Shown piece after piece: positions 1 through 61,564 of a DNA stretch of 64,000 bases. The notes beneath the pieces are model-generated. The model saw only the letters and a program-made list of their open reading frames with translations. It did no database searches and was not told where the DNA came from. This stretch comes from Gemmatimonadota bacterium (GTDB lineage Bacteria; Gemmatimonadota; Gemmatimonadetes; Gemmatimonadales; GWC2-71-9), in assembly GCA_003222055.1 (NCBI GenBank), contig QHUT01000054.1, positions 15,022 through 79,021 of the forward strand, read 5' to 3'. Numbering within the stretch: position 1 is the first letter of the stretch; every line of letters begins with the position of its first letter. The position numbers were made by a program, and so were the translations under genes.

Positions 1-158
1 TCGATGCGCACTCGCCACCCCTCCTCGCGGGCGGTGCCGAGCAGCAGCGCCACGGCATCGGGGGAGGCGGGCGCGACGCGCGGCACGCCGTCGGGCGTCG
101 CCGCGACCTCGACGGCTTCATCGCCCAGCAGGGCGCGGACGCGATCCAAGAGACTCAT
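1..158 (-). CDS. FAD-binding oxidoreductase, GlcE-like (N-terminal fragment; runs off the window)
   Basis: My own minus-strand translation from ATG 158..156 gives MSLLDRVRALLGDEAVEVAATPDGVPRVAPASPDAVALLLGTAREEGWRVRI. This resembles the N-terminus of a PCMH-type FAD-binding subunit. The ATG overlaps the TGA of the upstream glcD-like gene (ATGA). Confidence 0.45.
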   Translation of the reverse strand, partial: MSLLDRVRALLGDEAVEVAATPDGVPRVAPASPDAVALLLGTAREEGWRVRI

Positions 159-1657
159 CGAGCGGTTGCCTTCCGATCGATTGCGGATTGTGGATTGCGG
201 ATTGCGGATTGAGCCCCAGGGTTCGGCGCTCGCCCCATCCGCAATCCACTCCATTCCCGACACGCGTGCACCGGAACCACCTTCCCCGGGTTCACCCGCT
301 CCTCCGGGTCCCACACGTGGCGCACCGCGCGCATGGCGGCGAGCGAATCGCCGTCGAACAGGAGCGGCATGTAGCGGAGCTTGTCGAGCCCGATGCCGTG
401 CTCTCCCGTGATGGTCCCGCCGGCGGCGATGCACGTGGCCATGATTTCCGCGCTGGCCGCTTCCACCCGCTCGCGCAGGCCCGGCGTGCGGCCGTCGAAC
501 GAAATGTTGGGGTGCAGGTTGCCGTCGCCCGCGTGGAACACATTGCTGACCGTGAGCCCGTACTCGGCGGCGATCCGGGCGATCGTTTCCAGCACGTCGG
601 GGAGCGTGGAGCGGGGAACGACGGCGTCCTGGACCACCAGGTCGCGCGACAGCCGGCCCATGGCGCCGAAGGCTTTCTTGCGGCCGAGCCACAGCTTCTC
701 GCGCTGTTGCGCGTCCGCGGCCACGAGCACCGACCGCGCCCCGTGCGCGCGCAGCACGGCTTGGATCGTCTCGGCGTCCGCCGCGACCGCCGCCTCGTGC
801 GCGCCGTCGAGCTCGGCGAGCAGCACCGCCGCGGCATCGCGCGGGTAACCGGCCGCGTACACCGAGTCCTCCACTGCCTGGATGCACGACTGATCCATCA
901 TCTCGAGCGCGGCGGGCACGATCCCGCTGGCGATCACGGCGGACACGGCCTCACCGGCGGTACGCAATGAGGTGAAGTCGGCGAGCAAGGTGCGAACCGC
1001 CCGCGCGACGGGCAACAGCCGCACGGTGATGCGCGTCGCCACGCCGAAGTTGCCCTCCGAGCCGACGAACAGGCCGACCAGGTCGGGGCCCCACGGCTCG
1101 CCGCCGGGGCTGCCCAGCTCTACGACGCGTCCGTCCGCCAGCGCCACTTCCAGCGCGAGCACATGTGTCGCCGTCACCCCGTACTTGAGGCAGTGCGGGC
1201 CGCCCGCGTTTTCGGCCACGTTGCCGCCGATCGTACACGCGGTCTGACTCGAGGGATCGGGCGTATACTGCAGTCCGTGCGGTGCGGCGGCGACGGAGAG
1301 ACGGACGTTGACGACGCCGGGCTCGACCACGGCCAGCCTGTTGCGGGCGTCGATCTTGAGGATGCGGTTCAGCCGGGTCAGCACGATCAGCACCGCGTCG
1401 CCGTCGGCCAGCGCGCCCCCCGAGAGGCCGGTGCCCGCGCCACGTGGCACGAACGGCATGCCGAGCGCGCCGAGCAGCCGCACGACCGCGATCACCTCGT
1501 CCCGACTCCCCGGGAGCACGACCACGCCGGGCACGCGCCGGTGCGTGGGCAGCCCGTCCTTCGCGTACGTCACGCGCTCCGGCAGCGCCGTCCGCACGTG
1601 GCGCGGTCCGACGATCTCGGCGAGGGTGTCGACTAACGGCGCGAGGTCCCGTGCCAT
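155..1657 (-). CDS. glcD: FAD-linked oxidase, glycolate oxidase subunit GlcD / D-lactate dehydrogenase family
   Basis: Track ORF 155..1753. The likely start is ATG 1657 (MARDLAPLVDTLAEIVGPRHV). Motifs include VVLPGSRDEVIAVVRL, PRGAGTGLSGGA and C-terminal NPGKVVPVHACREWSG, which aligns with the E. coli GlcD tail. The last ~27 codons are encoded by repeat element A1. Confidence 0.85.
   Translation of the reverse strand: MARDLAPLVDTLAEIVGPRHVRTALPERVTYAKDGLPTHRRVPGVVVLPGSRDEVIAVVRLLGALGMPFVPRGAGTGLSGGALADGDAVLIVLTRLNRILKIDARNRLAVVEPGVVNVRLSVAAAPHGLQYTPDPSSQTACTIGGNVAENAGGPHCLKYGVTATHVLALEVALADGRVVELGSPGGEPWGPDLVGLFVGSEGNFGVATRITVRLLPVARAVRTLLADFTSLRTAGEAVSAVIASGIVPAALEMMDQSCIQAVEDSVYAAGYPRDAAAVLLAELDGAHEAAVAADAETIQAVLRAHGARSVLVAADAQQREKLWLGRKKAFGAMGRLSRDLVVQDAVVPRSTLPDVLETIARIAAEYGLTVSNVFHAGDGNLHPNISFDGRTPGLRERVEAASAEIMATCIAAGGTITGEHGIGLDKLRYMPLLFDGDSLAAMRAVRHVWDPEERVNPGKVVPVHACREWSGLRMGRAPNPGAQSAIRNPQSAIDRKATAR
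179..249. repeat. Heptamer-array palindromic element, family A (GCGGATT/AATCCGC), copy A1, one arm degenerate
   Basis: GATTGCGGATTGTGGATTGCGGATTGCGGATTG at 179..211, with partner CATCCGCAATCCAC at 236..249. It is translated as the GlcD-like C-terminus. Confidence 0.9.
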
Positions 1658-9738: not shown

Positions 9739-11847
9739 TTGCGTGCGTCTCTTCCGGTCCTCGTCGTCGCCGTATTCGCGGCGGCTCGCCTCGCCGCGCA
9801 GCAGGAGCCGCAGCGGGTAGTCCGTGGGCTTTCCTTCGAGGGCAATCACGCGATCGACCACTATACGCTGAGTGCCGCGATCGCGACCACCAATTCGAGC
9901 ACGTTCGCGACCAGCCCCTTCCTTCGCTGGCTCGGCCTCGGGGAAAAGCGGCCCTTCAACGAGCTCGAGTTCCGTCGCGACGTGGTGCGCCTGCTGCTGC
10001 TGTACCGCCAGAGCGGGTACATGAACGCGGTGATCGACACGGTGGTGCGCCGCGAGGCGAGAGACGTATACGTGAAGTTCCGGATCTACGAGGGCGACCC
10101 GGTGCGCCTCACCAGGCTCGACGTGTTGGGGGTCGACTCGATCCTCGACGTCCCGGCCGTGAAACGCGCGTTGCCGCTGCAGGTCGGGGACCCGTTCAAC
10201 CGGGCGCTGTTCCAGGCGTCCGCCGACACGATCGTGGGCCGGCTCAAGAACCGCGGGTACCCCTACGCCGACGTGTTGCGGAGCTACGACGTGGATGCCG
10301 CGGCGCTCCGGGCGGTGGCTGGGCTCGAGGGTGTCACGGGGCGGCGCATGCGGGTGGGCGAGGTGATCATCACGGGTGCCGGTCACGTCGACACGGGCAG
10401 CGTGCGGCGGATGCTCTCGGTGCGGCCGGGAGACTGGTTTCGGCAGGATCAGCTGTATGTGACACAGCGGGACCTGTACGGCCTCGGGATGTTCCGCTCG
10501 GTCAACGTGGTACTGGCCGACACGCTGCCGCGGTCCGGCGGCGACTCGACCGTGCGGGTGATGGTCCGTGTCGCCGAGGCGCCGCTGCGCCGCATCCGGA
10601 TCGGGGCGGGGTACGGCTCGCTCGACTGTTTCCGGGCGCAGAGCGGCTGGACGGCCTACGATTTCCTGGGCGGCGCGCGCTCGCTCGACTTGAGCGGCCA
10701 GGTCTCGAAGCTGGGCGTGGGCTTCCCGGCGGACGCCGGGTTCCGGGACAACGTGTGCCGCTTCCTGCAAAACGATCCGACATCCGATACCGCCAATTAC
10801 AACGCCACGCTCGCCCTGCGGCAGCCGGCGTTCCTGTCGCCGCGCCACACGGCGAGCCTCGCTCTGTTCGCGGAGCGGCGCTCGGAGTTCAGGGCGTACA
10901 CGCGGCAGGATATCGGTGTGAACGTGGGGGTCACGTTCAACGCCCGGCGCGAGATTCCCCTCACCGTCGCCTACAGCTACGCGGTGGGGCGCACGACGGC
11001 GGACCCGGTGCGGTACTGCAAGGAGTTTCTCGCGTGCAACCAGGCCGATCAGTCGTTTCTCGCCAACCGCCGGCGCTTCGGCGCCGTCACGATCTCGGGC
11101 GTCCGCGGTCGCGTGAACTCGGTGCTCGACCCCTCCGCGGGGAGCCTGATTCAGATGACGCTGGTCCACGCGTCGCGCTTGGTGCTCTCCGACACGTTGT
11201 ACGAGTTCAACCGCGGTGAGCTCGAGCTCTCGCGGTACTATCCGGTGTCGCGCCGGAGCGTGTTGGCGTGGCGGATCCGGGGCGGCACGATCCTGCCGCA
11301 ACGCATCACGCTCCTGGGGCAGAGTACGCAGTTCGTGCCGCCGGACCAGCGGTTCTACGCCGGGGGGCCGAATTCGGTGCGCGGGTACGCCCGCAACGAG
11401 CTGGGGCCCCGGGTGTACGTCGCCGACACGATTCTCCAAGTGAGCGGGGCCGACACGACCTATGGGGACATCAAAGCGTCCCCGACCGGCGGCAACACCG
11501 TGTTCACCGCCAACCTGGAGCTGCGCGTTCCTACGCCGATCTTTCCGGATCGCGTGCGACTCGGCTTGTTCGTGGACGCGGGGCAGGTGTGGGAGCGGGG
11601 AGACACGCTGAGCACGGTCAGTGGACTGCGCGTCACGCCCGGGGTGGGCTTGCGGTTCGTCACGCCGCTCGGGCCGGTGCGACTGGACGCCGCCTACAAC
11701 GGCTACCCGCCGGAGCCCGGACAGGTGTATTTCCTGAACAAGAGCGACAAGAGCATCCGGGCAACCGGGAAGACGCACGATCCCGGCCTGCCGCCCGGGT
11801 TCTGGCGCCGCGTCGTGGTGCAGTTCGCGGTGGGACAGGCGTTCTGA
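9739..11847 (+). CDS. Omp85 (BamA/TamA) family outer-membrane protein, TamA-like
   Basis: POTRA-like N-terminal part and a C-terminal barrel with QRFYAGGPNSVRGY. Track ORF starts at 9637 but that overlaps the divergent gene. TTG 9739 gives the signal peptide MRASLPVLVVAVFAAARLAAQQ. The start is uncertain (9664 is also possible). Confidence 0.8.
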   Translation: MRASLPVLVVAVFAAARLAAQQEPQRVVRGLSFEGNHAIDHYTLSAAIATTNSSTFATSPFLRWLGLGEKRPFNELEFRRDVVRLLLLYRQSGYMNAVIDTVVRREARDVYVKFRIYEGDPVRLTRLDVLGVDSILDVPAVKRALPLQVGDPFNRALFQASADTIVGRLKNRGYPYADVLRSYDVDAAALRAVAGLEGVTGRRMRVGEVIITGAGHVDTGSVRRMLSVRPGDWFRQDQLYVTQRDLYGLGMFRSVNVVLADTLPRSGGDSTVRVMVRVAEAPLRRIRIGAGYGSLDCFRAQSGWTAYDFLGGARSLDLSGQVSKLGVGFPADAGFRDNVCRFLQNDPTSDTANYNATLALRQPAFLSPRHTASLALFAERRSEFRAYTRQDIGVNVGVTFNARREIPLTVAYSYAVGRTTADPVRYCKEFLACNQADQSFLANRRRFGAVTISGVRGRVNSVLDPSAGSLIQMTLVHASRLVLSDTLYEFNRGELELSRYYPVSRRSVLAWRIRGGTILPQRITLLGQSTQFVPPDQRFYAGGPNSVRGYARNELGPRVYVADTILQVSGADTTYGDIKASPTGGNTVFTANLELRVPTPIFPDRVRLGLFVDAGQVWERGDTLSTVSGLRVTPGVGLRFVTPLGPVRLDAAYNGYPPEPGQVYFLNKSDKSIRATGKTHDPGLPPGFWRRVVVQFAVGQAF

Positions 11848-14800
11848 TGGTCCGGCGCTCGCTCGGCGTGGCATTGTGGATGCTCGCGGGGCTGCTCGCC
11901 TGCTTCCTGGGGGCACTCGCGTCGCTCGTGGGTACGGACGCGGGACGCGCACTGCTCACGCGCGTGACGGCGGGGGCCCTGCACCAGGTGTTCACGGGCA
12001 CCATCGAGATCGGCGACGTCGGAGGCTCGCTGCTCACCGGCCTCACCCTCTCCCAGGTCCGGTTGTTCGACGCCGACTCGACACTGGTCGCCTGGCTGCC
12101 GCGGGTCGACGTGAGCTACAACCCGTTCGATTTCGCCGCGGGGCGGGTGGTGCTGTTCGAGTTCGATCTGCGCCGACCCGTGATCAACATCGTACAGCAC
12201 CCGAGCGGGCGGCTGAACATCGAGGAGCTGTTGCGTTTGGGCGGGCCGGACACGGGCAAGCACGGGCCGGCGGCGCTGATCCTGCTCCGGAACGTGCGCG
12301 TCACGGACGGCAGCGTAACGCTGCGACTGCAGGCGCGCCACGCCGAGCCCGGCGATTCGGCGCTCGAGATCGCCGGTGGCGGCCCGAACGGGCGGCTGCG
12401 CGTGCGGCGCTTCGAGCATCTGGACGCGCACCTCGCGGCCCTGCAGGTCTCCTCGCCGCGCGAGCGCGGCATCCGCATCGACGTGTCGCGGCTCGCGTTC
12501 GAGAGCACCGACCCCGCGGTGCGCCTCGTCGACGTCGCGGGCCGGCTCCGCGTGATCGGCGACTCGATGGAGGTGCGCCTCGCCCGCGTGCAGCTGCCCG
12601 CGTCCGCGCTGCGGGACGCCCATGGCGCCGTCCGCTGGCCGCACGGCCCCCTGCTGTTCGATCTCCGGCTGCGTGCCGACTCGGCGACGCTCGGCGATTT
12701 CCCGTTCATTGATCGCCGCTTCACCGGCCCGCCCGCCACCGGAGTGCTCTCGGGAGACGTGCGGCTGCGCTCCCACGGGAGTCGGGTCTTGGAGGTAGGG
12801 TTGGATTCGCTGCGCTTGGCGTTTGCGGGGGGCACGGTCGCCGGCCGGCTGACCGCCTTGAGCGTCGCGGACTCGGGGCTCGTCGCGCTGCGCGACGCCG
12901 ACCTGGACGCCCGCGACTTCGACCTCGAATTCGCCCGGCCGTTTCTCGACACCCTGCCCTTTGCCGGACGGCTCACCGGGCGCACCATCGCCACGGGACC
13001 GCTCACCGCCCTCGCTCTGGAAACTGACTGGTCGTTCCGCGACTCGCTCGTACCGGCGTGGCCGCAGACACAGGTGCGGGGCAAGGGCGAGGTGAACCTC
13101 AGGGCGGCCGACGGCATCCGGTTCCAGCCGTTCGCCGTGGAGGCGGCGAGCGTCGATCTGGGTACACTGGCCCGGCTGGCGCCGGCGGTGCGACTGCACG
13201 GCACGCTCCTGGCCAACGGCAGCCTCGCGGGCCCGCTCAAGAACGCGCAGTTCACCGGCACCCTCGAGCATCGGGACGGCGAGCGGCCGCCGAGCCACTT
13301 CACGGGCGCCGTGCGCCTCGATACGCGCGGCCGGGTGCTCGGCATCTACGCCGACGTGACGGCCGACTCGCTCTCCTTCGACGGCCTCAGGGGCAGCTTT
13401 CCCACGCTCCCGTTGCGAGGAGCCGCGTCGGGGCCGCTGAAGCTGACGGGCCCGCTCGACGCGCTCGAAACCCACGCCGAGCTGTACGCCGGTGGAGAGG
13501 GAGGCGACGTGCGCGCCGACGGCGTGCTGATGCTCGATCTGCCGCACTATGGTGCGCGCGAGTTCGAGCTGGCCACGCGGGACTTGGATCTCGCGCACTG
13601 GCTCACCGGCGCCCCGCCCTCGCGCCTCGGCCTCACCGTCCGCGGCGCCTTGACGGGTGACAGCGGCGTCGCGCCCAGCGGCGCCGTCACCGCGCTGCTC
13701 GGGCCGTCGCTGTTCGCCGGCGCGGGGCTCGACTCGGGCGCCGTGCGCCTGCGCCTCGCCGACCGCCGGGTGTACGTCGACTCGCTGCGCCTGGCGCAAC
13801 CCGGGCTCGTCACCACCGGGTCGGGATCGCTCGGCTGGACGCGCGGCACGAGCGGCCAGCTGGCGCTCGATTTCGACGCCGACAGCTTGAGCGCCATCGA
13901 TTCCCTGGTGAGCTGGCTCGCGGGGAGCAACGCCGCGGCGCGCGCCGATCCCGACCCCGACCCCGAGCCGATCCGGCCGCTCGCGGGCTCGGCCCGCGTG
14001 GTCGCGACGCTCGGGGGGTCGCTCGACTCGCTCGGCGTCGAGGTGCGCGCCAGCGTGGAGCGGGTGGCGTGGCGTGGCTGGCAGCTCCCCGCCGGCCGCG
14101 CGCGCCTCCAATGGCGCCCCGGCCCCACGCCCGCGTTCGCGCTGGAGGCGACGCTCGACTCCCTCGCCTACGGCACGCTGGGGTTCTCGGGGGCGGCGGC
14201 GGTGGGGCGCGGGACGCTGGACTCGCTCACGTGGTTCGCGCGCTCCCGCATGGGCGGGGGGGGCGCCTTCCTCGCCGGCGGGCGCTTCGCCCGCCGCACC
14301 ACCGCGGCGGGCGGGCGTGTACTCGCCGTGGGTCTCGACTCGCTGGCGGTGCAGCTGCCGGGCGACGTCTGGGTGCTCGAGCGGCCGGCGGAGCTCAGCG
14401 TGACCGATTCGGCCGCTCGCGTGAGCCACCTGGCGCTACACAGCGTGTACGGGTCGGGCAAGCTCGCACTCGAGGGGGACCTCCCCACGCACGGCCGGGC
14501 CGACGCCCACCTGCAGCTCGAGGGTTTTCCGCTGGCGGGCGTGTATGCGCTGCTCGAGCGGGACACCGCGGGCGTCGGCGGGTCGGTCACCGCGACCGCC
14601 GGCCTCTCGGGGAGCCGGGCCGATCCGGTGTCGAGCGGCGCGTTCTCGCTCTCGAACGGACGGCTCGGCGAGTTCCGCGCCCCGTTCGTCGACGGCACCT
14701 TCGAGTACCGCGACCGCCGGCTGCGGACCGCCCTGCACCTCTGGCGCTCGGGGCAGCAGATCCTCGACGTGCAGGCATTTCTGCCGCTGGACCTCGCCCT

Positions 14801-30810: not shown

Positions 30811-32060
30811 CAGCGCGTCCGCGCGAAGCGCGCCGCGTATGCACCGTCGATTCCGTCGCGCTGTGGCAGGGACTGCAGGTCGCCGTCCGGAGTGAGCAGG
30901 GCAGCCGGCACCGCGGCCGGCACGGGCGCGCGCCCGAACTCAGGGTGGCAGGCGAGGAACTCGGTCACGATGTCGTCGTTCTCCTCCGGCTCGAGCGAGC
31001 AGGTACTGTAGACGAGCAGTCCTCCCGCACCGACGAGCGTTGCGGCGGCCGCGAGCAGCGCCCGCTGCCGCCGGGCGGCGTGTACGATCGTGCGCGGCGT
31101 GATCCGCCAGCGGGCGTCCGGATGCCGGGCCATGGTGCCGGTAGCGGAGCACGGGGCGTCCACCAACACGGCGGATGCGGTTCCCGGCGCGAGCGGTGCC
31201 GACAGAAGATCGGCGACCGTCACCCGGATCGCCACTCCCGCCCGTCGCGTCGTCTCGGCCAGCCGGCGCATGCGCTCCGGCCGGGCGTCCCCCGCCACGA
31301 CTCGAGCGCCGCCCCGCTCCAGCATCACGGCCTTGCCGCCCGGCGCGGCACAGGCGTCGTACACGAGCGCTCCCGGGGGGATCGCGGCGTAGCGGCAGAC
31401 GAGGGCGTGGGCGGGGTCCTGGACGATAAAGCCGCCTTCCGAATACCCCGGCAACTGCACGGGAAACGGGAAACGGGAAACGTGGTCGAGGCGTGACACC
31501 CGCAGGCCGGCTCCATGGGGCGCTTCTTCTACACCAAACCCGACCTTCCGGAGCTCGAGCGCGAGCACATCGGCGGACCAACGGGCAGGCTGAAGCGTGA
31601 GATTCGGCTTCGTGTCATTCCAGGCGACCAGCCGGGTTGTGTCGGTCGCCCCAAAGAGGCGCCGCCAGCGCTCGACGAGCCACGACGGGTGCGTGTTCTC
31701 GCCCGTTTCCCGTTTCCGGTTTCCCGTTTCCCGAGCGAGCCTTCGCAGCGCCTGGTTCACATACCTCGCTGCCGCGTCGCCCGCCGCTTCCCGCGCCAGC
31801 TCCACGCTGGTGGCGACCGCCGCGTAGGCCGGCACGCGGGCCAATGCGGCCAGCTGGTAGGCGCCAAGACGGAGGACATCGTGCAGGCGCGGGTCGGCGT
31901 GGCGCAGCCGCAGCCGGCGGTCGAGATCCGCTCGCCCCCGCAGCACGCCGGCGGCGAGCTCATAGGCGAGCCGGCGGTCCCGCCCGGCGAGCGTGGGAAG
32001 CACCCGGTCCCGCGCCGCCTGGAACGTGCCGCCGGAGCGCACCGCCTGGAGGATGTGCAA
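30810..32060 (-). CDS. rsmB: 16S rRNA (cytosine967-C5)-methyltransferase
   Basis: HPSWLVERW, FIVQDPAHALV, DACAAPGGK, DAPCSATGT and YSTCSLEPEEN. It contains two in-frame heptamer arrays (see repeats). Confidence 0.9.
   Translation of the reverse strand: MHILQAVRSGGTFQAARDRVLPTLAGRDRRLAYELAAGVLRGRADLDRRLRLRHADPRLHDVLRLGAYQLAALARVPAYAAVATSVELAREAAGDAAARYVNQALRRLARETGNRKRETGENTHPSWLVERWRRLFGATDTTRLVAWNDTKPNLTLQPARWSADVLALELRKVGFGVEEAPHGAGLRVSRLDHVSRFPFPVQLPGYSEGGFIVQDPAHALVCRYAAIPPGALVYDACAAPGGKAVMLERGGARVVAGDARPERMRRLAETTRRAGVAIRVTVADLLSAPLAPGTASAVLVDAPCSATGTMARHPDARWRITPRTIVHAARRQRALLAAAATLVGAGGLLVYSTCSLEPEENDDIVTEFLACHPEFGRAPVPAAVPAALLTPDGDLQSLPQRDGIDGAYAARFARTR
31459..31482. repeat. (GGGAAAC)x3 heptamer array inside rsmB
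   Basis: ACGGGAAACGGGAAACGGGAAACG. It is translated on the minus strand as SRFPFP. Confidence 0.9.
31702..31733. repeat. (CCCGTTT)x4 heptamer array inside rsmB, inverted partner of 31459..31482
   Basis: CCCGTTTCCCGTTTCCGGTTTCCCGTTTCCCG. It is translated on the minus strand as RETGNRKRETG. Confidence 0.9.
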
Positions 32061-35534: not shown

Positions 35535-36727
35535 GCGGATCCCGATCGCAGGTAGCGGCGGCGCCAGGCATCGGCCCACGGGCCGAAGGCGTTCCGCCGG
35601 ATCGCGGCCCGCATGTCCTGCGCGAGCCGGATCAGGTAGCGGACGTTGTGCAGCGACAACAGTCTCAGGCCCAGCAGCTCTTCCGCTACGAACAGGTGCC
35701 GGAGGTACCCCCGCGAGAACGTGGTGCACGCCTCGCAGTCGCACGAGTCGTCGAGCGGCCGCGGGTCCTCGCGGTGCTCGGCGTTGCGAATGTTCACGGG
35801 GCCGTCGGGCGTGAAGGCCGAGCCGTTTCGCCCGTTGCGCGTCGGCGCCACGCAGTCGAACAGATCCAGCCCGCGCTCCACCGCCGCCACCAGGTCCTCG
35901 GGAAACCCCACGCCCATAAGATAACGCGGCAGGGCGGGGGGGAGCCGCGGCTCGAGCGCGTCGAGCATCGCGTACATCGCCGCCTTGGGCTCGCCGACCG
36001 AGAGGCCGCCGATCGCGAGACCGGTCCAGTCGCGCATGTCGCAGATCCGGCGCAGTCCTTCCTCCCGCAGCGCGAGATGGACGCCGCCCTGGAGAATGGG
36101 CCACAAGGTCTGGTTGCACGACGCTACGACGCCACGTTGCAAGGAGTGCCCGGCGTCAGTCGTGGAACGTGGCGTCGTAGCGTCGTGTGACGCTTTCAGT
36201 TCCTCATGCCGCTTCCGGCACCGCTCCAACCATCTCAGCGTTCGCTCGAGGGCGTCCCTGGCCGCGCTCTCGTCCGCGCCCCCGGGGACCACGTGGTCGA
36301 ACGCCATCGCGACGTCGGCGCCCAGGGTCCACTGGATCTCCGTGGCGCGCTCGGGCGTGAGCCGGCGACGGCCGCCGTCCACGTGGCTCTGGAACTCGAC
36401 GCCGTCGTCGTCCACGCGCCGGAAGCCCTCGAGCGAGAATACCTGGAAGCCGCCCGAGTCCGTGAGCAGCGGTCGATCCCAGCCCATGAAGCGGTGCAGC
36501 GCGCCGAGCGTCGCCACCACCTCCTCGCCCGGGCGCACGTGCAGGTGATAGGTGTTCGCGAGCACGAGCGTCGCGCCCGCGGCGCGGAGGTCGTTGGGCG
36601 AAAGCGCCCGCACGGTGCCTTGAGTCCCGACCGGCATGAAGACCGGCGTTTCGACGCTACCGTGCGGGAGGGTGAGGGTGCCGGCGCGGGCGGGGCCGGA
36701 GGTCGCGTCGACCTTGAACTCGAACAC
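35531..36727 (-). CDS. tgt: Queuine tRNA-ribosyltransferase (tRNA-guanine transglycosylase)
   Basis: The start GTG 36727 gives (M)FEFKVDATSGPARAGTL, which aligns with E. coli MKFELDTTDGRARRGRL. Also LTDSGGFQVFSL, GLAIGGLSVGE and CDCEAC. The ~25-aa loop HDATTPRSTTDAGHSLQRGVVAS is encoded by palindrome B1. The track ORF N-terminus (to 36811) runs through repeat A2 and is rejected. Confidence 0.92.
   Translation of the reverse strand: MFEFKVDATSGPARAGTLTLPHGSVETPVFMPVGTQGTVRALSPNDLRAAGATLVLANTYHLHVRPGEEVVATLGALHRFMGWDRPLLTDSGGFQVFSLEGFRRVDDDGVEFQSHVDGGRRRLTPERATEIQWTLGADVAMAFDHVVPGGADESAARDALERTLRWLERCRKRHEELKASHDATTPRSTTDAGHSLQRGVVASCNQTLWPILQGGVHLALREEGLRRICDMRDWTGLAIGGLSVGEPKAAMYAMLDALEPRLPPALPRYLMGVGFPEDLVAAVERGLDLFDCVAPTRNGRNGSAFTPDGPVNIRNAEHREDPRPLDDSCDCEACTTFSRGYLRHLFVAEELLGLRLLSLHNVRYLIRLAQDMRAAIRRNAFGPWADAWRRRYLRSGSA
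36117..36187. repeat. Octamer-array palindromic element, family B (CACGACGC/GCGTCGTG), copy B1, inside tgt
   Basis: Perfect 22-bp inverted repeat: CACGACGCTACGACGCCACGTT (36117..36138) and AACGTGGCGTCGTAGCGTCGTG (36166..36187), with a 27-nt loop. Confidence 0.95.
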
Positions 36728-36734
36728 GGGCGTT

Positions 36735-36812
36735 ATTGCGGATTGCGGATTTCGGATTGCGGATTCGAAAGTCGGGCGTCCAATCCGCAATCCACAATCC
36801 GCAATCCGCAAT
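36735..36812. repeat. Heptamer-array palindromic element, family A, copy A2
   Basis: Left arm ATTGCGGATTGCGGATTTCGGATTGCGGATT (36735..36765). Loop CGAAAGTCGGGCGTCC. Right arm AATCCGCAATCCACAATCCGCAATCCGCAAT (36782..36812). 29 of 31 positions are complementary. It fills the queA-tgt gap. Confidence 0.95.
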
Positions 36813-37864
36813 CAGAGTACCGCCATTGCATCCCCATACGAGTAAAACCGGTATCCCTCCCTTACCGCTTCCCCGTACGCCCGCATGACGTTGTCATAGC
36901 CCCCGAACGCGCACACCAACATTAGCAGGGTCGAGCGCGGCAGGTGGAAGTTCGTGAGCAGCCGGTCGACCGCGCGGAACGAGTACGGGGGGTGAATGAA
37001 GAGCCGGGTCTCGCCGGCGCCCGGAGCGATGCGGCCGCGCTCGCCGGCAAGCGTTTCGAGCGTGCGCACGACCGTGGTCCCGACCGCCCAGACGCGACCT
37101 CCCGCTTCCCGTCGCTCGTTGATGATCCCGGCCGCGCTGTCGCTCACCCGGTACGGCTCGTCGTGCATCGCATGGCGCGCGAGGTCGTCGGTCTCGACCG
37201 GCTTGAAGGTGCCGGGGCCGACGTGCAGGTCCACTTCCGCGAGCGCCACGCCCTTGTCGCGCAGCCGGTCCAACAGGTCGCGCGTGAAATGCAATCCGGC
37301 CGTGGGAGCGGCGACGCTGCCGTCGTGTGCCGCGTACACCGTCTGGTAGCGCTCGCGATCCTCGGGGCGCGGCGCGCGGCGGATGTAGGGCGGCAGTGGC
37401 ACCTCGCCGTACTTGGCGAGCGTGGCCGGGGCGTCGAGCGCGCCGACGAACCGCACCCGGCGGAGGCCGCCTCCCAACGCCTCGACGATCTCCGCGGTGC
37501 TGTCGGGGCCGAACGTCACGCGGCGTCCCGACTTGAGCTTGCCTCCGGGATGCCCCATGGCGAGCCAGGTCCCATCGGGTAGCTCCCGGACGAGCAAGAG
37601 TTCGGCCTTGCCGCCGGACCCGCCCATCCCGCTTCCCGCAAGCCGCATCCCGTGCAGTCTCGCCGGAATCACGCGTGACACGTTGACGACGAGCACGTCC
37701 TCCGGCGCCACCAGATCGACGACGTCGACGAACCGCCCGTGGCGGATCGCCCCGCTGGCGCGATCGAGCACCAGGAGGCGACTCCCGCCCCGATCGGGGA
37801 GCGGGTCTTGGGCGATCTGCTCGGCTGGCAGACTGTAGTCGAAGTCTGAAGTTCGGTAGAGCAC
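36812..37864 (-). CDS. queA: S-adenosylmethionine:tRNA ribosyltransferase-isomerase
   Basis: The start GTG 37864 gives (M)LYRTSDFDYSLPAEQIAQDPL, which aligns with E. coli MRVTDFSFELPESLIAHYP. Also TRVIPARL-like VSRVIPARL, AAPTAGLHFT and FRFYSYGDAM. The track ORF N-terminus runs through repeat A3. Confidence 0.92.
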   Translation of the reverse strand: MLYRTSDFDYSLPAEQIAQDPLPDRGGSRLLVLDRASGAIRHGRFVDVVDLVAPEDVLVVNVSRVIPARLHGMRLAGSGMGGSGGKAELLLVRELPDGTWLAMGHPGGKLKSGRRVTFGPDSTAEIVEALGGGLRRVRFVGALDAPATLAKYGEVPLPPYIRRAPRPEDRERYQTVYAAHDGSVAAPTAGLHFTRDLLDRLRDKGVALAEVDLHVGPGTFKPVETDDLARHAMHDEPYRVSDSAAGIINERREAGGRVWAVGTTVVRTLETLAGERGRIAPGAGETRLFIHPPYSFRAVDRLLTNFHLPRSTLLMLVCAFGGYDNVMRAYGEAVREGYRFYSYGDAMAVL

Positions 37865-37870
37865 GCCGAG

Positions 37871-37952
37871 AATTGCGGATGGCGGATTTCGGATTGCGGA
37901 TTCGAAGGTCGTGGGTCCAATCCGCAATCCGCACTCCACAATCCGCAATCCG
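37871..37952. repeat. Heptamer-array palindromic element, family A, copy A3
   Basis: AATTGCGGATGGCGGATTTCGGATTGCGGATT, loop CGAAGGTCGTGGGTCC, then AATCCGCAATCCGCACTCCACAATCCGCAATCCG. It fills the ruvB-queA gap. Confidence 0.95.
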
Positions 37953-37954
37953 TG

Positions 37955-38995
37955 TTAGCCGTCAAACATCGTCGGCTGGTCCGCGCTTCGGGGCGGCGTG
38001 AAGCCGAAATGCTTGTACGCGCCTGCCGTGGCGCAGCGGCCGCGCGGCGTGCGCGCCAGGAACCCCTGCTGCATCAGGAACGGCTCGTACACTTCTTCGA
38101 GCGTGCCGGCGTCCTCCCCCACGGCGGCGGCGATGGTGGTGAGTCCCACCGGGCCCCCGTCGAACTGCTCGATGATCGTCTTGAGGATACGCCCGTCCAT
38201 GTCGTCGAGACCGAACTCGTCTACGTCCAGGCGTTGGAGGGCCTCCCCCGCTACCTGCGCCGTGATCTTGCCGCCGGCGCGCACCTGGGCGTAGTCGCGG
38301 ACCCGCTTCAGCAGCCGGTTCGCGACGCGGGGCGTCCCGCGACTGCGGCGGGCGATTTCGGCGATGCCTGCGACGTCCGCGGGGACGCCCAGGATCCCGG
38401 CCGAGCGGCTGATGATCTGCGCCAGGTCGTCCGGCGGATAGTAGGAGAGGCGCTCTACCAGCCCGAAGCGCGCGCGCATCGGCGGCGTCAGCAGGCCGAA
38501 TCGGGTGGTCGCCCCGATCAGCGTGAACCGCTCGAGCGCCATCGGAATGGTCTGCGCGTGCGGACCCTCGGCGACGCGGACGTCGACCCGGTAGTCCTCC
38601 ATCGCGGGGTAGAGGAATTCCTCGAGCGCCGGGCGCAGGCGGTGCACTTCGTCGATGAACAGGATGTCGTTCGCCTGGAGCGACGTGAGCAGGCCCACCA
38701 GGTCTCCCGGCCGCTCGAGCACCGGGCCCGAGGTCGTGCGGACGCTCACGCCCAGCTCCTTCGCCATGAGCAGCGCGAGGGTCGTTTTGCCGAGTCCCGG
38801 GGGCCCGAAGAACAGCGTGTGGTCGAGGGGCTCCCGCCGCTGCTTCGCTGCGTCGATGGCGATTTGGAGCGACTCCTTCACCTTCGCCTGGCCGACGAAC
38901 TCGTCCAGCCCCGACGGCCGCAGCGCGGCGTCGGTGAGCCGCTCGTCGGGCAGGGCGTCCGGCGTGGTGACCTGGGTCCGCGCGCGCGTGCTCAC
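37955..38995 (-). CDS. ruvB: Holliday junction branch migration helicase RuvB
   Basis: [19 protein letters not shown]...[14 protein letters not shown]...IDEVHRL. The start GTG 38995 forms a GTGA overlap with the small ORF stop. The Arg-rich extension to 39154 is judged off-frame. Confidence 0.92.
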
Positions 38996-57259: not shown

Positions 57260-57330
57260 CACGACGCCACGACGCCACGACGCCACGTTGCGAGAGCCTC
57301 TTTCGTGGAACGTGGCGTCCTGCCGTCATG
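57260..57330. repeat. Octamer-array palindromic element, family B, copy B2 (between convergent genes)
   Basis: (CACGACGC)x3 + CACGTT at 57260..57289, with partner AACGTGGCGTCCTGCCGTCATG at 57309..57330 (19 of 22 complementary). The loop starts GCGAG and ends TCGTGG, like B1. Confidence 0.9.
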
Positions 57331-61475: not shown

Positions 61476-61477
61476 GA

Positions 61478-61564
61478 GAGGGGCTAGGGGTCGGGGGCTA
61501 GGGGCTGGGGACTGCGCTGCCATCCCGAATCCCTGACCCCTGACCCCTGATCCCTGACCCCTGA
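61478..61564. repeat. G-tract / C-tract heptamer palindrome (GGGGCTA-type arm against CCCTGAC-type arm)
   Basis: GGGGCTAGGGGTCGGGGGCTAGGGGCTGGGG at 61480..61510 and CCCTGACCCCTGACCCCTGATCCCTGACCCCTGA at 61531..61564. The right arm ends at the ATG of the amidohydrolase gene. Confidence 0.9.

Follow-up and report, generated by a model that had tools for sequence, protein, structure and literature searches.

A Heptamer-Array Palindromic Repeat in the Predicted C-Terminal Tail of a Gemmatimonadales glcD-Like Gene, Directly before an Overlapping Stop and Start

The window, meaning the whole 64-kb stretch of DNA analysed, comes from a free-living soil member of the Gemmatimonadales with 70% GC and begins with two overlapping minus-strand genes. 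The upstream gene (positions 155 to 1657) codes for a 500-aa glycolate oxidase FAD-linked subunit; its open reading frame spans 155 to 1753, with the ATG at 1657 as the likely true start. The product contains Pfam FAD_binding_4 and FAD-oxidase_C domains, is 77 to 93% identical to its orthologues, and matches the NCBIfam GlcD profile (E = 5.6e-147) with a score below the curated equivalog cutoff, so that glcD-like is the safe name. The downstream gene, whose 5' part lies at 1 to 158 before it runs off the window, codes for a protein beginning MSLLDRVRALLGDEAV; its orthologue in related loci is the glcE-like FAD_binding_4 gene. The glcD-glcE-glcF operon, which with the two domains characterizes GlcD, is seen syntenically in the related locus L083, where the orthologous glcE-like gene codes for 402 aa with PF01565 and a Fer4/CCG glcF comes next.

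Homology of the glcD product ends before its stop codon. The FAD-oxidase_C match stops at residue 460 and the NCBIfam match at residue 474 of 500, and W469 is the final invariant column in an alignment of 52 GlcD sequences. The last conserved residues, NPGKVVPVHACREW, are encoded at 292 to 251, homology among orthologues runs two codons further (SG, 250 to 245), and tails diverge past CREW[SA]G. The remaining stretch, SGLRMGRAPNPGAQSAIRNPQSAIDRKATAR (250 to 158), precedes a TGA at 157 to 155 and has no in-frame stop; an earlier note, made from the sequence alone, had described homology up to CREWSG and a frame that then enters a palindromic element, A1, and stays open across it, and both the coordinates and the profile limits agree with this.

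A1 (179 to 249) is a palindrome of heptamer arrays with the unit GATTGCG. Its short arm, on the mRNA-5' side (237 to 249; coding strand GTGGATTGCGGAT), has about 1.7 heptamers left, and an inverted repeat search finds these 13 nt 100% complementary to 190 to 202. The long arm, on the mRNA-3' side (179 to 211), encodes QSAIRNPQSAI and holds 4.7 tandem heptamers, reading CAATCCG on the coding strand and GATTGCG on the plus strand (TRF: period 7, 4.7 copies, 92% matches). The spacer or loop between them (212 to 236) encodes GRAPNPGA, and the sequence 3' of the repeat (158 to 178) encodes DRKATAR, of which the last two codons are GCT CGA. The fold is a 13-bp stem (z = -4.1), and the predicted extension of GlcD that A1 encodes is hydrophilic and about 24 residues long. 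Between the repeat and glcE, GGAAGG at 169 to 174 precedes the glcE ATG by 10 nt and is possibly Shine-Dalgarno-like.

A1 belongs to a repeat family, family A, that has three copies in the 64 kb and an array carried by at least 119 metagenome contigs. The 12-mer GATTGCGGATTG occurs 19 times in the window with at most one mismatch, versus 0.28 expected (0/100 shuffles), and its matches include two full copies with both arms intact. A2 (36734 to 36813) fills the queA-tgt spacer, 84 nt from the queA stop (36812 to 36814) to the tgt GTG (36727), and A3 (37872 to 37952) fills the ruvB-queA spacer, 89 nt from the ruvB stop (37955 to 37957) to the queA GTG (37865); window copies exactly fill such stop-to-start spacers between co-directional genes (84, 89, and 88 nt). 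The arms of A2 and A3 contain 4.4 to 5.0 heptamer units each, forming stems of a 31-bp class (folding z = -8.8 and -8.2). The heptamer arrays of A1 are identical to those of intergenic A2 and A3, and a GATTGTG variant unit is also common to all three; the A1 loop is unlike the 14-nt loop common to A2 and A3, and the loop GAAATGCAGGCGTC is characteristic of the family, being found again in A2 and in the L016 glcF copy. Of 47 GATTGCG arrays on metagenome contigs of high GC content, only 1 to 3 appear translated. An Rfam scan of the repeat yields nothing at the gathering threshold, just chance miRNA-like hairpin matches (E > 0.1), by which a known RNA family is rejected, and literature searches returned no match to the exact repeat or its encoded peptide and nothing specific on Gemmatimonadetes repeats.

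The earlier note credited the element with both the tail and the stop codon of glcD, and on the second point comparison with orthologues indicates otherwise. The ATGA at 155 to 158 is real and retained as the note had it, with the glcE ATG (158 to 156) over the glcD TGA (157 to 155), and 4-nt glcD/glcE overlaps are present in independent JGI, ENA, and NCBI gene calls. A stop/start overlap occurs at 67 of 68 orthologous Gemmatimonadales loci (ATGA in 52, GTGA in 14, and TTGA in 1), including all 50 with short tails. The element-free relative L084 ends TGG AGT GGC GTG CTC GCC CGA TGA (...W-SGVLAR-TGA), and both sides of the insert in the window are preserved relative to it, as TGG AGT GG...GCT CGA TGA (SG...AR-TGA); the terminal GCT CGA and stop match the element-free ancestral tail in comparison with SGVLAR of L084 and DAEAGVR of L081. 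Because the L084 flanks match those of the window on both sides, the final glcD codons and stop are ancestral, and the stop is older than the repeat, leaving to the element most of the tail.

Element-free orthologues, in an alignment of the kind the note had proposed, end 3 to 17 residues after CREW and lack the tail peptide; among the Gemmatimonadales orthologues compared, the same peptide was not seen in any element-free close relative, where element-free or remnant tails read SGVLAR, AGVA, AGTRNAEV, and AGVRTNPELVR. Tails are short and element-free at all 43 deep-branching loci, and 17 of the 30 loci in the closer subclade carry long palindromic tails at the glcD end. The units at this site vary in a common register (GGATTGC, GGAATGC, GGAGTGC, and GGAACGC), some loci instead having an unrelated GC-rich hairpin, and the tails are unalignable between lineages and wholly unlike even where GlcD cores are ∼93% identical. 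AlphaFold assigns pLDDT of <50 to GlcD residues 467 to 500, which is weak evidence, the mean pLDDT of the model being 66.

The insertion had also been called old, with one eroded arm, and occupation of the site is indeed old and subclade-wide; the arm is more exactly described by a 21-nt loss relative to P0053. This relative is 99% identical to the window glcD over the first 240 residues and keeps both arms, and the window has a 7-codon gap at the short arm, equal to 21 nt or three heptamers. The two tails differ by three substitutions and the 7-residue indel, a higher density of differences than the second aligned stretch of the core shows, and an indel between the tails of P0004 and P0002 is likewise in units of 7 codons.

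Each of the 17 long tails keeps the frame, contains no stop, and runs through to the ancestral overlap. Their shifted frames are mostly free of stops within the tail (23 of 34), so many frameshifts would run 37 to 2,497 nt into glcE or fuse the genes. The absence of stops at glcD reflects survivorship. Only 12 of 21 hairpin heptamer units are stop-free on both strands versus 80% of random genomic 7-mers, and this count rejects the idea that the elements are coding-adapted, stop-free in all six frames. At the control junction glcE-glcF, where most loci have an overlap of this kind but the tail is conserved, an element is present in 0 of 21 loci, and the idea that any overlapping stop/start junction attracts elements is rejected.

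These features are probably best explained by a passively translated REP/MITE-like repeat in a permissive glcD C-terminal tail, with the frame held by selection for glcD-glcE coupling. A1 is one member, partly decayed, of a dispersed family of non-coding hairpin repeats, each made of two inverted GATTGCG arrays with a short loop. It sits in apparently dispensable final codons, with the conserved ...CREWSG on one side and the ancestral ...AR-TGA on the other. The ATGA overlap leaves no intergenic space between glcD and glcE, so that an element landing there is automatically coding, and the survivors would be only in-frame, stop-free versions still ending at the overlapping stop/start, their survival presumably reflecting preserved termination-reinitiation coupling of glcE. 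The ribosome would read the repeat passively, adding ∼24 residues that are likely neutral and have no function of their own. Array length could change without loss of frame only three heptamers at a time (21 nt, 7 codons), and the missing A1 arm of the window would be one such step.

Occupancy of 17 of 30 subclade loci is high against a background of ∼0.1 strong hairpins per kb (strict hairpin search over 1.4 Mb), and counts against a purely neutral passenger. Across lineages, pairing at variable heptamer positions of the hairpin is kept in 85.6% of cells versus 76% in shuffles, with 30 double-sided (compensatory) changes versus 11.4 ± 2.5, and 0 of 500 shuffles reach either observed value. 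A kept hairpin with compensatory differences is also what selection on structure would produce, which counts against passive translation as the whole account; the same pattern is equally expected from simple replacement by paralogous palindromes.

Passive translation of the repeat is compatible with more than one history, and to a choice between independent hot-spot insertions after GGNGTGC (codons G-V) and one ancient insertion, with arms later changed in concert or overwritten by paralogous gene conversion, we give somewhat less than even confidence. Hot-spot insertion or replacement is favored by the window and L081 having the same 3' flank (CGGAAG...TCGATGA) with different heptamer units and unrelated loops, by the GC-rich, non-heptamer hairpin that L005, L007, and L019 have at this position, and by the recurrence of the GAAATGCAGGCGTC loop as a family feature. 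The identical register speaks for a single origin, as do the left end [SA]GVRNAE in many N, W, and F tails, the right end SAL.. common to most tails, and the composition of the arrays as mosaics of unit variants. Either history may hold: the neighbor-joining (NJ) tree of GlcD cores leaves the shallow clade unseparated, and the flanks are just 5 to 20 nt.

It is fairly unlikely that the hairpin is instead under selection as a cis-acting RNA element where glcD meets glcE, with the predicted peptide a mere by-product; such an element might pause ribosomes before the stop/start, be an RNase III/E processing or stabilizing site, or set the GlcD:GlcE ratio. The high and persistent occupancy across the subclade agrees with this, as does retention of register and stem with compensatory differences while the unit changes, but covariation is expected anyway when one palindrome replaces another, and unrelated palindromes are found at the same place. 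The spacer-filling copies in the window fit a role at cistron boundaries, and there are reports that REPs function as RNA elements 3' of coding sequences (PMC3733652); however, many close relatives have lost the element or have only remnants, decay has left the copy in the window with a stem of 13 bp, and there is no Rfam match.

A functional tail peptide recruited from the repeat, for example to contact GlcE/GlcF or the membrane, is very improbable: the heptamer-type tails are all hydrophilic, arginine-rich, and in frame, but they are entirely unlike between lineages ∼93% identical in the core, many relatives are tailless, near-identical relatives differ by a 7-residue indel, and the tail is modeled with low confidence. 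Hardest of all to credit is an assembly or sequencing artefact, with an earlier true stop or a misjoined repeat, for although repeats are error-prone in metagenome assemblies and P0053 and P0086 have odd internal deletions or frameshifts, at least 17 assemblies, independent of one another and drawn from different projects, have the same architecture, with flanks intact and the same overlap.

Palindromic repeats lying in frame within genes have been described before (Rickettsia RPE, REPs, and Coxiella QMITE2), and the glcD case is a further example. Rickettsia palindromic elements (RPE) were reportedly described by Ogata et al. in 2000 as inserted in frame in protein-coding genes. Such insertions are summarized in PMC3733652 and mentioned in PMC1779305, and A1 resembles them as an in-frame, stop-free palindromic repeat in a housekeeping open reading frame that adds a peptide at a structurally permissive place. 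The repeat sequences are presumably unrelated, and so are the hosts: the RPE host has a reduced intracellular genome, whereas that of A1 is a free-living soil bacterium of high GC content, and A1 differs in having arms of tandem heptamers and a C-terminal site directly before an overlapping stop/start; only the in-frame insertion behavior is shared, and host phylum and GC content make RPE membership implausible.

REPs with GTAG or CGTC tags are short hairpin repeats found for the most part in spacers of convergent or co-directional genes (Di Nocera et al. 2013, PMC3733652), some being within open reading frames or at their ends and some contributing to the 3' end, and different REPs occupy about the same recB site in two Xanthomonas species (PMC3733652). 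The glcD stop, by contrast, is not provided by the repeat, the A1 arms are ∼33 nt of heptamers versus 20 to 40 bp for a whole REP, and A1 to A3, with ends GATTGCGG... and ...CCGCAAT, have neither the GTAG nor the CGTC tag of REPs and REPINs. Wachter et al. (2018, PMC5896051) describe QMITE2 as an in-frame 3'-end insertion in enhC of Coxiella burnetii Dugway that encodes the C-terminal ∼33 residues of the product and, like A1, places a stable stem within coding mRNA. QMITE2 belongs to the MITEs, has terminal inverted repeats, and is closely followed by a stop, whereas A1 has arms and a loop and an ancestral stop overlapping the glcE start; the passages describing QMITE2 give no many-species comparison of the site. 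A1 to A3 consist of arms and loop only, without the consistent flanking direct repeats of MITEs, and the copy in L081 may be flanked by a GGNGT(G/T)C duplication, in this one instance only.

Cyanobacterial heptanucleotide repeats go under the name STRR. In Xanthomonas, GGGAATC heptamer tandem repeats occur in convergent pairs, and a Nostoc heptamer repeat is intergenic, between pecE and pecF, and not coding (Rehm et al. 2015, PMC4692102). These repeats typically have about four units and are abundant and mostly intergenic, and A1 is like them in its inverted 7-nt arrays; it has more than the two tandem 7-nt units that define a heptamer array (4.7 at 179 to 211), with a nearby inverted array able to form a stem-loop (237 to 249), as in A2 and A3. 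It differs in its unit, GATTGCG and relatives, and in its phylum, and the Xanthomonas and cyanobacterial repeats have been studied as G-quadruplex formers (PMC4692102).

An unlikely reading is that the glcD-glcE hairpin and the spacer-filling copies form a selected, continually renewed cistron-boundary device, with the Gemmatimonadales as a free-living counterpart of Rickettsia. If so, the stem would place the downstream start close to the upstream stop, so that coupling survives an insert of 80 to 90 nt, and heptamer families across the genome would renew the device, through gene conversion or through insertion targeted to hairpins. This would explain hairpin retention at orthologous sites despite unit switching between lineages ∼93% identical in the core, and the Gemmatimonadales would be high-GC, free-living bacteria with palindromes routinely in housekeeping proteins (the glcD tail, tgt, and the rsmB and glcF linkers).

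Comparative support is unusually good for a selfish or structural repeat persisting in the coding sequence of an essential operon at a permissive tail, where operon architecture, a 4-nt stop/start overlap, dictates the surviving variants as in frame, stop-free, and stepped by 21 nt in length. Many "variable C-termini" and hypothetical peptides in soil metagenomes that resemble ...SAIRNPQSAI... are likely translated repeats, a caution for annotation. Heptamer variant turnover at one orthologous site provides a natural series for palindrome replacement or co-evolution. More than one variant can be present in a genome, L001 having GGAACGC at glcD and a GGAATGC type in glcF, and one variant per genome through genome-wide homogenization is thus unsupported.

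The glcD-like open reading frame lies on the minus strand from 1753 to 155, with its likely true start at the ATG at 1657, and codes for a protein that contains FAD_binding_4 and FAD-oxidase_C domains in a domain search and matches the NCBIfam GlcD models (E = 5.6e-147), with the profile aligned up to residue 474 of 500. Conserved sequence ends with NPGKVVPVHACREW (292..251, minus strand), after which the frame continues as a tail, SGLRMGRAPNPGAQSAIRNPQSAIDRKATAR (250..158, minus strand), and the TGA stop (157..155) shares its TG with the ATG (158..156) of the next minus-strand ORF, which starts MSLLDRVRALLGDEAV; as the earlier note proposed, the frame is open across the palindrome and ends in an ATGA overlap. 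Because the downstream gene in related contigs codes for a 402-aa FAD_binding_4 protein and is followed by one for a Fer4/CCG protein, the operon is assigned as glcD-glcE-glcF. The end of glcD is also a repeat as claimed: element A1 (179..249) contains a tandem GATTGCG array of 4.7 copies at 179-211, positions 237-249 are a perfect 13-nt complement of 190-202, and the 12-mer GATTGCGGATTG occurs 19 times in the window with at most one mismatch, against 0.28 expected. The two full copies, A2 (36734-36813) and A3 (37872-37952), have 4-5 heptamers in both arms and a 14-nt loop, with RNA folding energies of -54 and -52 kcal/mol (z = -8.8 and -8.2); of this structure only a 13-bp stem remains in A1 (z = -4.1).

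Among thousands of GlcD relatives from a protein search, the best 120 (77-95% identical, every source-named one labelled Gemmatimonadales or Gemmatimonadetes) agree as far as the CREW motif plus about two residues and diverge completely thereafter. Orthologous loci comprise 80 from Gemmatimonadales, found by a scan of species-representative genomes, and 4 from exact protein look-up; tails and overlaps were counted in the 68 loci, including the window, in which the CREW motif and stop could be located. The glcD stop overlaps the glcE start in 67 of these (ATGA in 52, GTGA in 14, and TTGA in 1), and in the remaining locus, L080, glcD and glcE are fused. Tails are 3-21 residues long in 50 loci, including all deep-branching ones (63-71% identity), and longer tails (25-52 residues), which fold as strong hairpins, occur in 17 loci, all of them within a subclade of 75-95% identity. 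The element-free locus L084 (89% identical) reads TGG AGT GGC GTG CTC GCC CGA TGA (W SGVLAR stop), and the window has TGG AGT GG[element]...GCT CGA TGA at the equivalent site; since these flanks match around the element, the insert interrupts an ancestral tail that was short, about 6 codons. The overlap is present in short-tailed and deep-branching loci alike, so the stop is ancestral and not element-borne. The observation in the earlier note is confirmed in full and its interpretation partly supported, in that the element encodes the tail, whose peptide is missing from element-free relatives, and does not supply the stop codon. L080 is from a deep-branching Gemmatimonadales MAG, in which glcD and glcE form one ORF (11383-12616) through loss of the overlapping stop, as a shift into the glcE frame would be expected to produce.

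The related protein P0053, whose first 240 residues are 99% identical to those of the window protein, has the tail SGLRIADFGLRSARAPDPEAQSAIRNPQSAIDRKAAA; in the BLAST alignment the window protein has a 7-residue gap exactly at the 5' arm. A gap of seven codons (21 nt, three heptamers) is the shortest step by which the array can change length in frame, and a 7-residue step also separates the related proteins P0004 and P0002. Judged from these equal steps, the shortened arm of A1 is a single slippage-type in-frame deletion rather than slow decay, which refines the earlier note's description of an old insertion with one full and one eroded arm.

The palindromes at this site differ among lineages. 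Ten of 11 aligned heptamer-type tails are gapless when set in heptamers from a point 3 nt past the Trp codon, the exception, L082, having a loop 9 nt longer. The units are GGATTGC in the window, L082, L083, and L025, GGAATGC in L015 and L016, GGAGTGC in L081, and GGAACGC in L001-L004, and the 3' arm holds the complementary unit in each lineage. The closest genome relatives of the window, L002 (95%) and L001 (93%), have GGAACGC units, L081 (93%) has GGAGTGC units despite a 3' flank common to the window, and an unrelated GC-rich hairpin (CCCCGGGCGCGAGCCCGGGG...) occupies the same glcD point in L005, L007, and L019. The site may have received a single ancient insertion that later changed by conversion and co-evolution, in line with the identical register and the outer units in common; alternatively, a hot spot after GGNGTGC may have taken up insertions repeatedly, with the different loops on identical flanks pointing to replacement. 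Directly 3' of the repeat in the window (169-174), L025, L081, and L083 is a forward unit like GCGGA(A/G)G (GGAAGG or GGAG), 8-10 nt upstream of the glcE start in several lineages with the element, and may be either Shine-Dalgarno-like or a piece of the element terminus.

Each of the 17 long tails stays in frame as far as the ancestral overlap, and 23 of their 34 shifted frames have no stop within the tail, so many frameshifts would continue for 37-2497 nt within glcE or join GlcD and GlcE in one protein. The glcE-glcF junction, examined as a control, has no element at any of 21 loci; it is mostly an ATGA overlap too, but its tail is conserved. The best-supported reading is that A1 is a passively translated repeat in the permissive tail of glcD, and that purifying selection would keep the reading frame through it, since the glcD stop and the glcE start share nucleotides. 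What is demonstrated is that A1 belongs to a repeat family, that the stop is ancestral, that element-free relatives lack the peptide, that every long tail is read through in frame, and that indels come in 21-nt steps. Selection would probably protect termination-reinitiation coupling, and the tail peptide is likely neutral, for which hypervariability and low confidence at residues 467-500 of a mediocre GlcD structure model (mean pLDDT of 66) provide limited support.

Passive translation has one main rival, an RNA hairpin under selection at the boundary between the cistrons, which the high occupancy and conserved pairing favour. For a 29-pair stem in an alignment of 11 sequences, with the caveats that the structure was taken from one member and that the sequences share ancestry, 85.6% of cells are paired, compared with 76% in shuffles and 26-48% with partner columns slid, and double-sided changes affect 30 cells versus 11.4 ± 2.5 in shuffles; none of 500 shuffles equals either observed value. 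Strong hairpins occur at only ∼0.1 per kb in the 1.4 Mb examined. Arguing against a selected hairpin, the element is often lost, remnants persist in relatives, the window's own copy is decayed, and unrelated palindromes occupy the same site. A broader reading, in which such a hairpin is both selected and continually renewed and a free-living soil lineage carries repeats embedded in its proteins much as Rickettsia does, is unlikely.

Elsewhere in the window, A2 fills the entire 84-nt spacer from the queA stop to the tgt GTG (36728-36811), A3 the entire 89-nt spacer from the ruvB stop to the queA GTG (37866-37954), and a different heptamer hairpin the 88-nt spacer from the PBP1A gene to the ATG of an amidohydrolase-like gene (61476-61563). 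At all three, the flanking genes are co-directional, the downstream start is 0-6 nt from the repeat end, and no obvious Shine-Dalgarno sequence precedes that start. The exact array GATTGCGGATTGCGGATTG (GATTGCG x 2.7) was found by contig search in at least 119 metagenome contigs (L085-L164 among them), where the arrays are frequently inverted pairs; because contig GC spans 37-72%, they are probably present in several phyla. In L162 (55% GC), as in the window, one array begins directly after a queA stop. Of the 47 arrays from high-GC contigs, just 1 resembles C-terminal read-through and 2 look internal, so family A is normally intergenic, and A1 is an exception because the glcD-glcE junction has no spacer.

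Rickettsia RPEs and the REPs of several genera are established examples of palindromic repeats lying in frame within genes, REP termini can supply stop codons, and two Xanthomonas species have different REPs at the same recB site (PMC3733652). A QMITE2 copy in Coxiella codes for the C-terminal 33 residues of EnhC (PMC5896051), and Xanthomonas GGGAATC repeats are heptamer arrays in inverted pairs (PMC4692102). Unlike REPs, the element here has no GTAG/CGTC tag, and unlike MITEs it has no TIR/TSD anatomy; an Rfam search found no family for it, and a literature search found no published report of its sequence or peptide. A1 is a clean and instructive case and not a new kind of system, and what is new is the comparative series at one orthologous site, an overlapping stop shown to predate the insert, and a length step of three heptamers.

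Other repeats are also located inside genes. Within the tgt coding sequence (36113-36191), an in-frame hairpin (z = -6.9) built on the octamer CACGACGC has a perfect stem of 22 bp and encodes SHDATTPRSTTDAGHSLQRGVVASC; the TGT Pfam match spans ∼27 residues more than the profile, which fits an insertion, and a second copy at 57271-57327 appears intergenic. The rsmB coding sequence (minus strand) contains inverted heptamer arrays, TTCCCGT/ACGGGAA, ∼230 nt apart (31459-31484 and 31702-31733), in the two linkers flanking the ferredoxin-like domain, with the peptides RETGNRKRETGE and SRFPFPVQ. A GGAATGC-type heptamer palindrome forms a translated part of the GMLAATK-LFRGC linker of glcF in L001 (13137-13265) and L016 (13125-13241), and its loop resembles that of family A/F copies elsewhere; other relatives have different 19-32-residue sequences in this linker, some of which also look repeat-derived. 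Also of note are the glcF linkers of L067, L070, and L071, that of L067 containing the peptide CHPERSEGS, probably the translation of another widespread soil-bacterial palindromic repeat.
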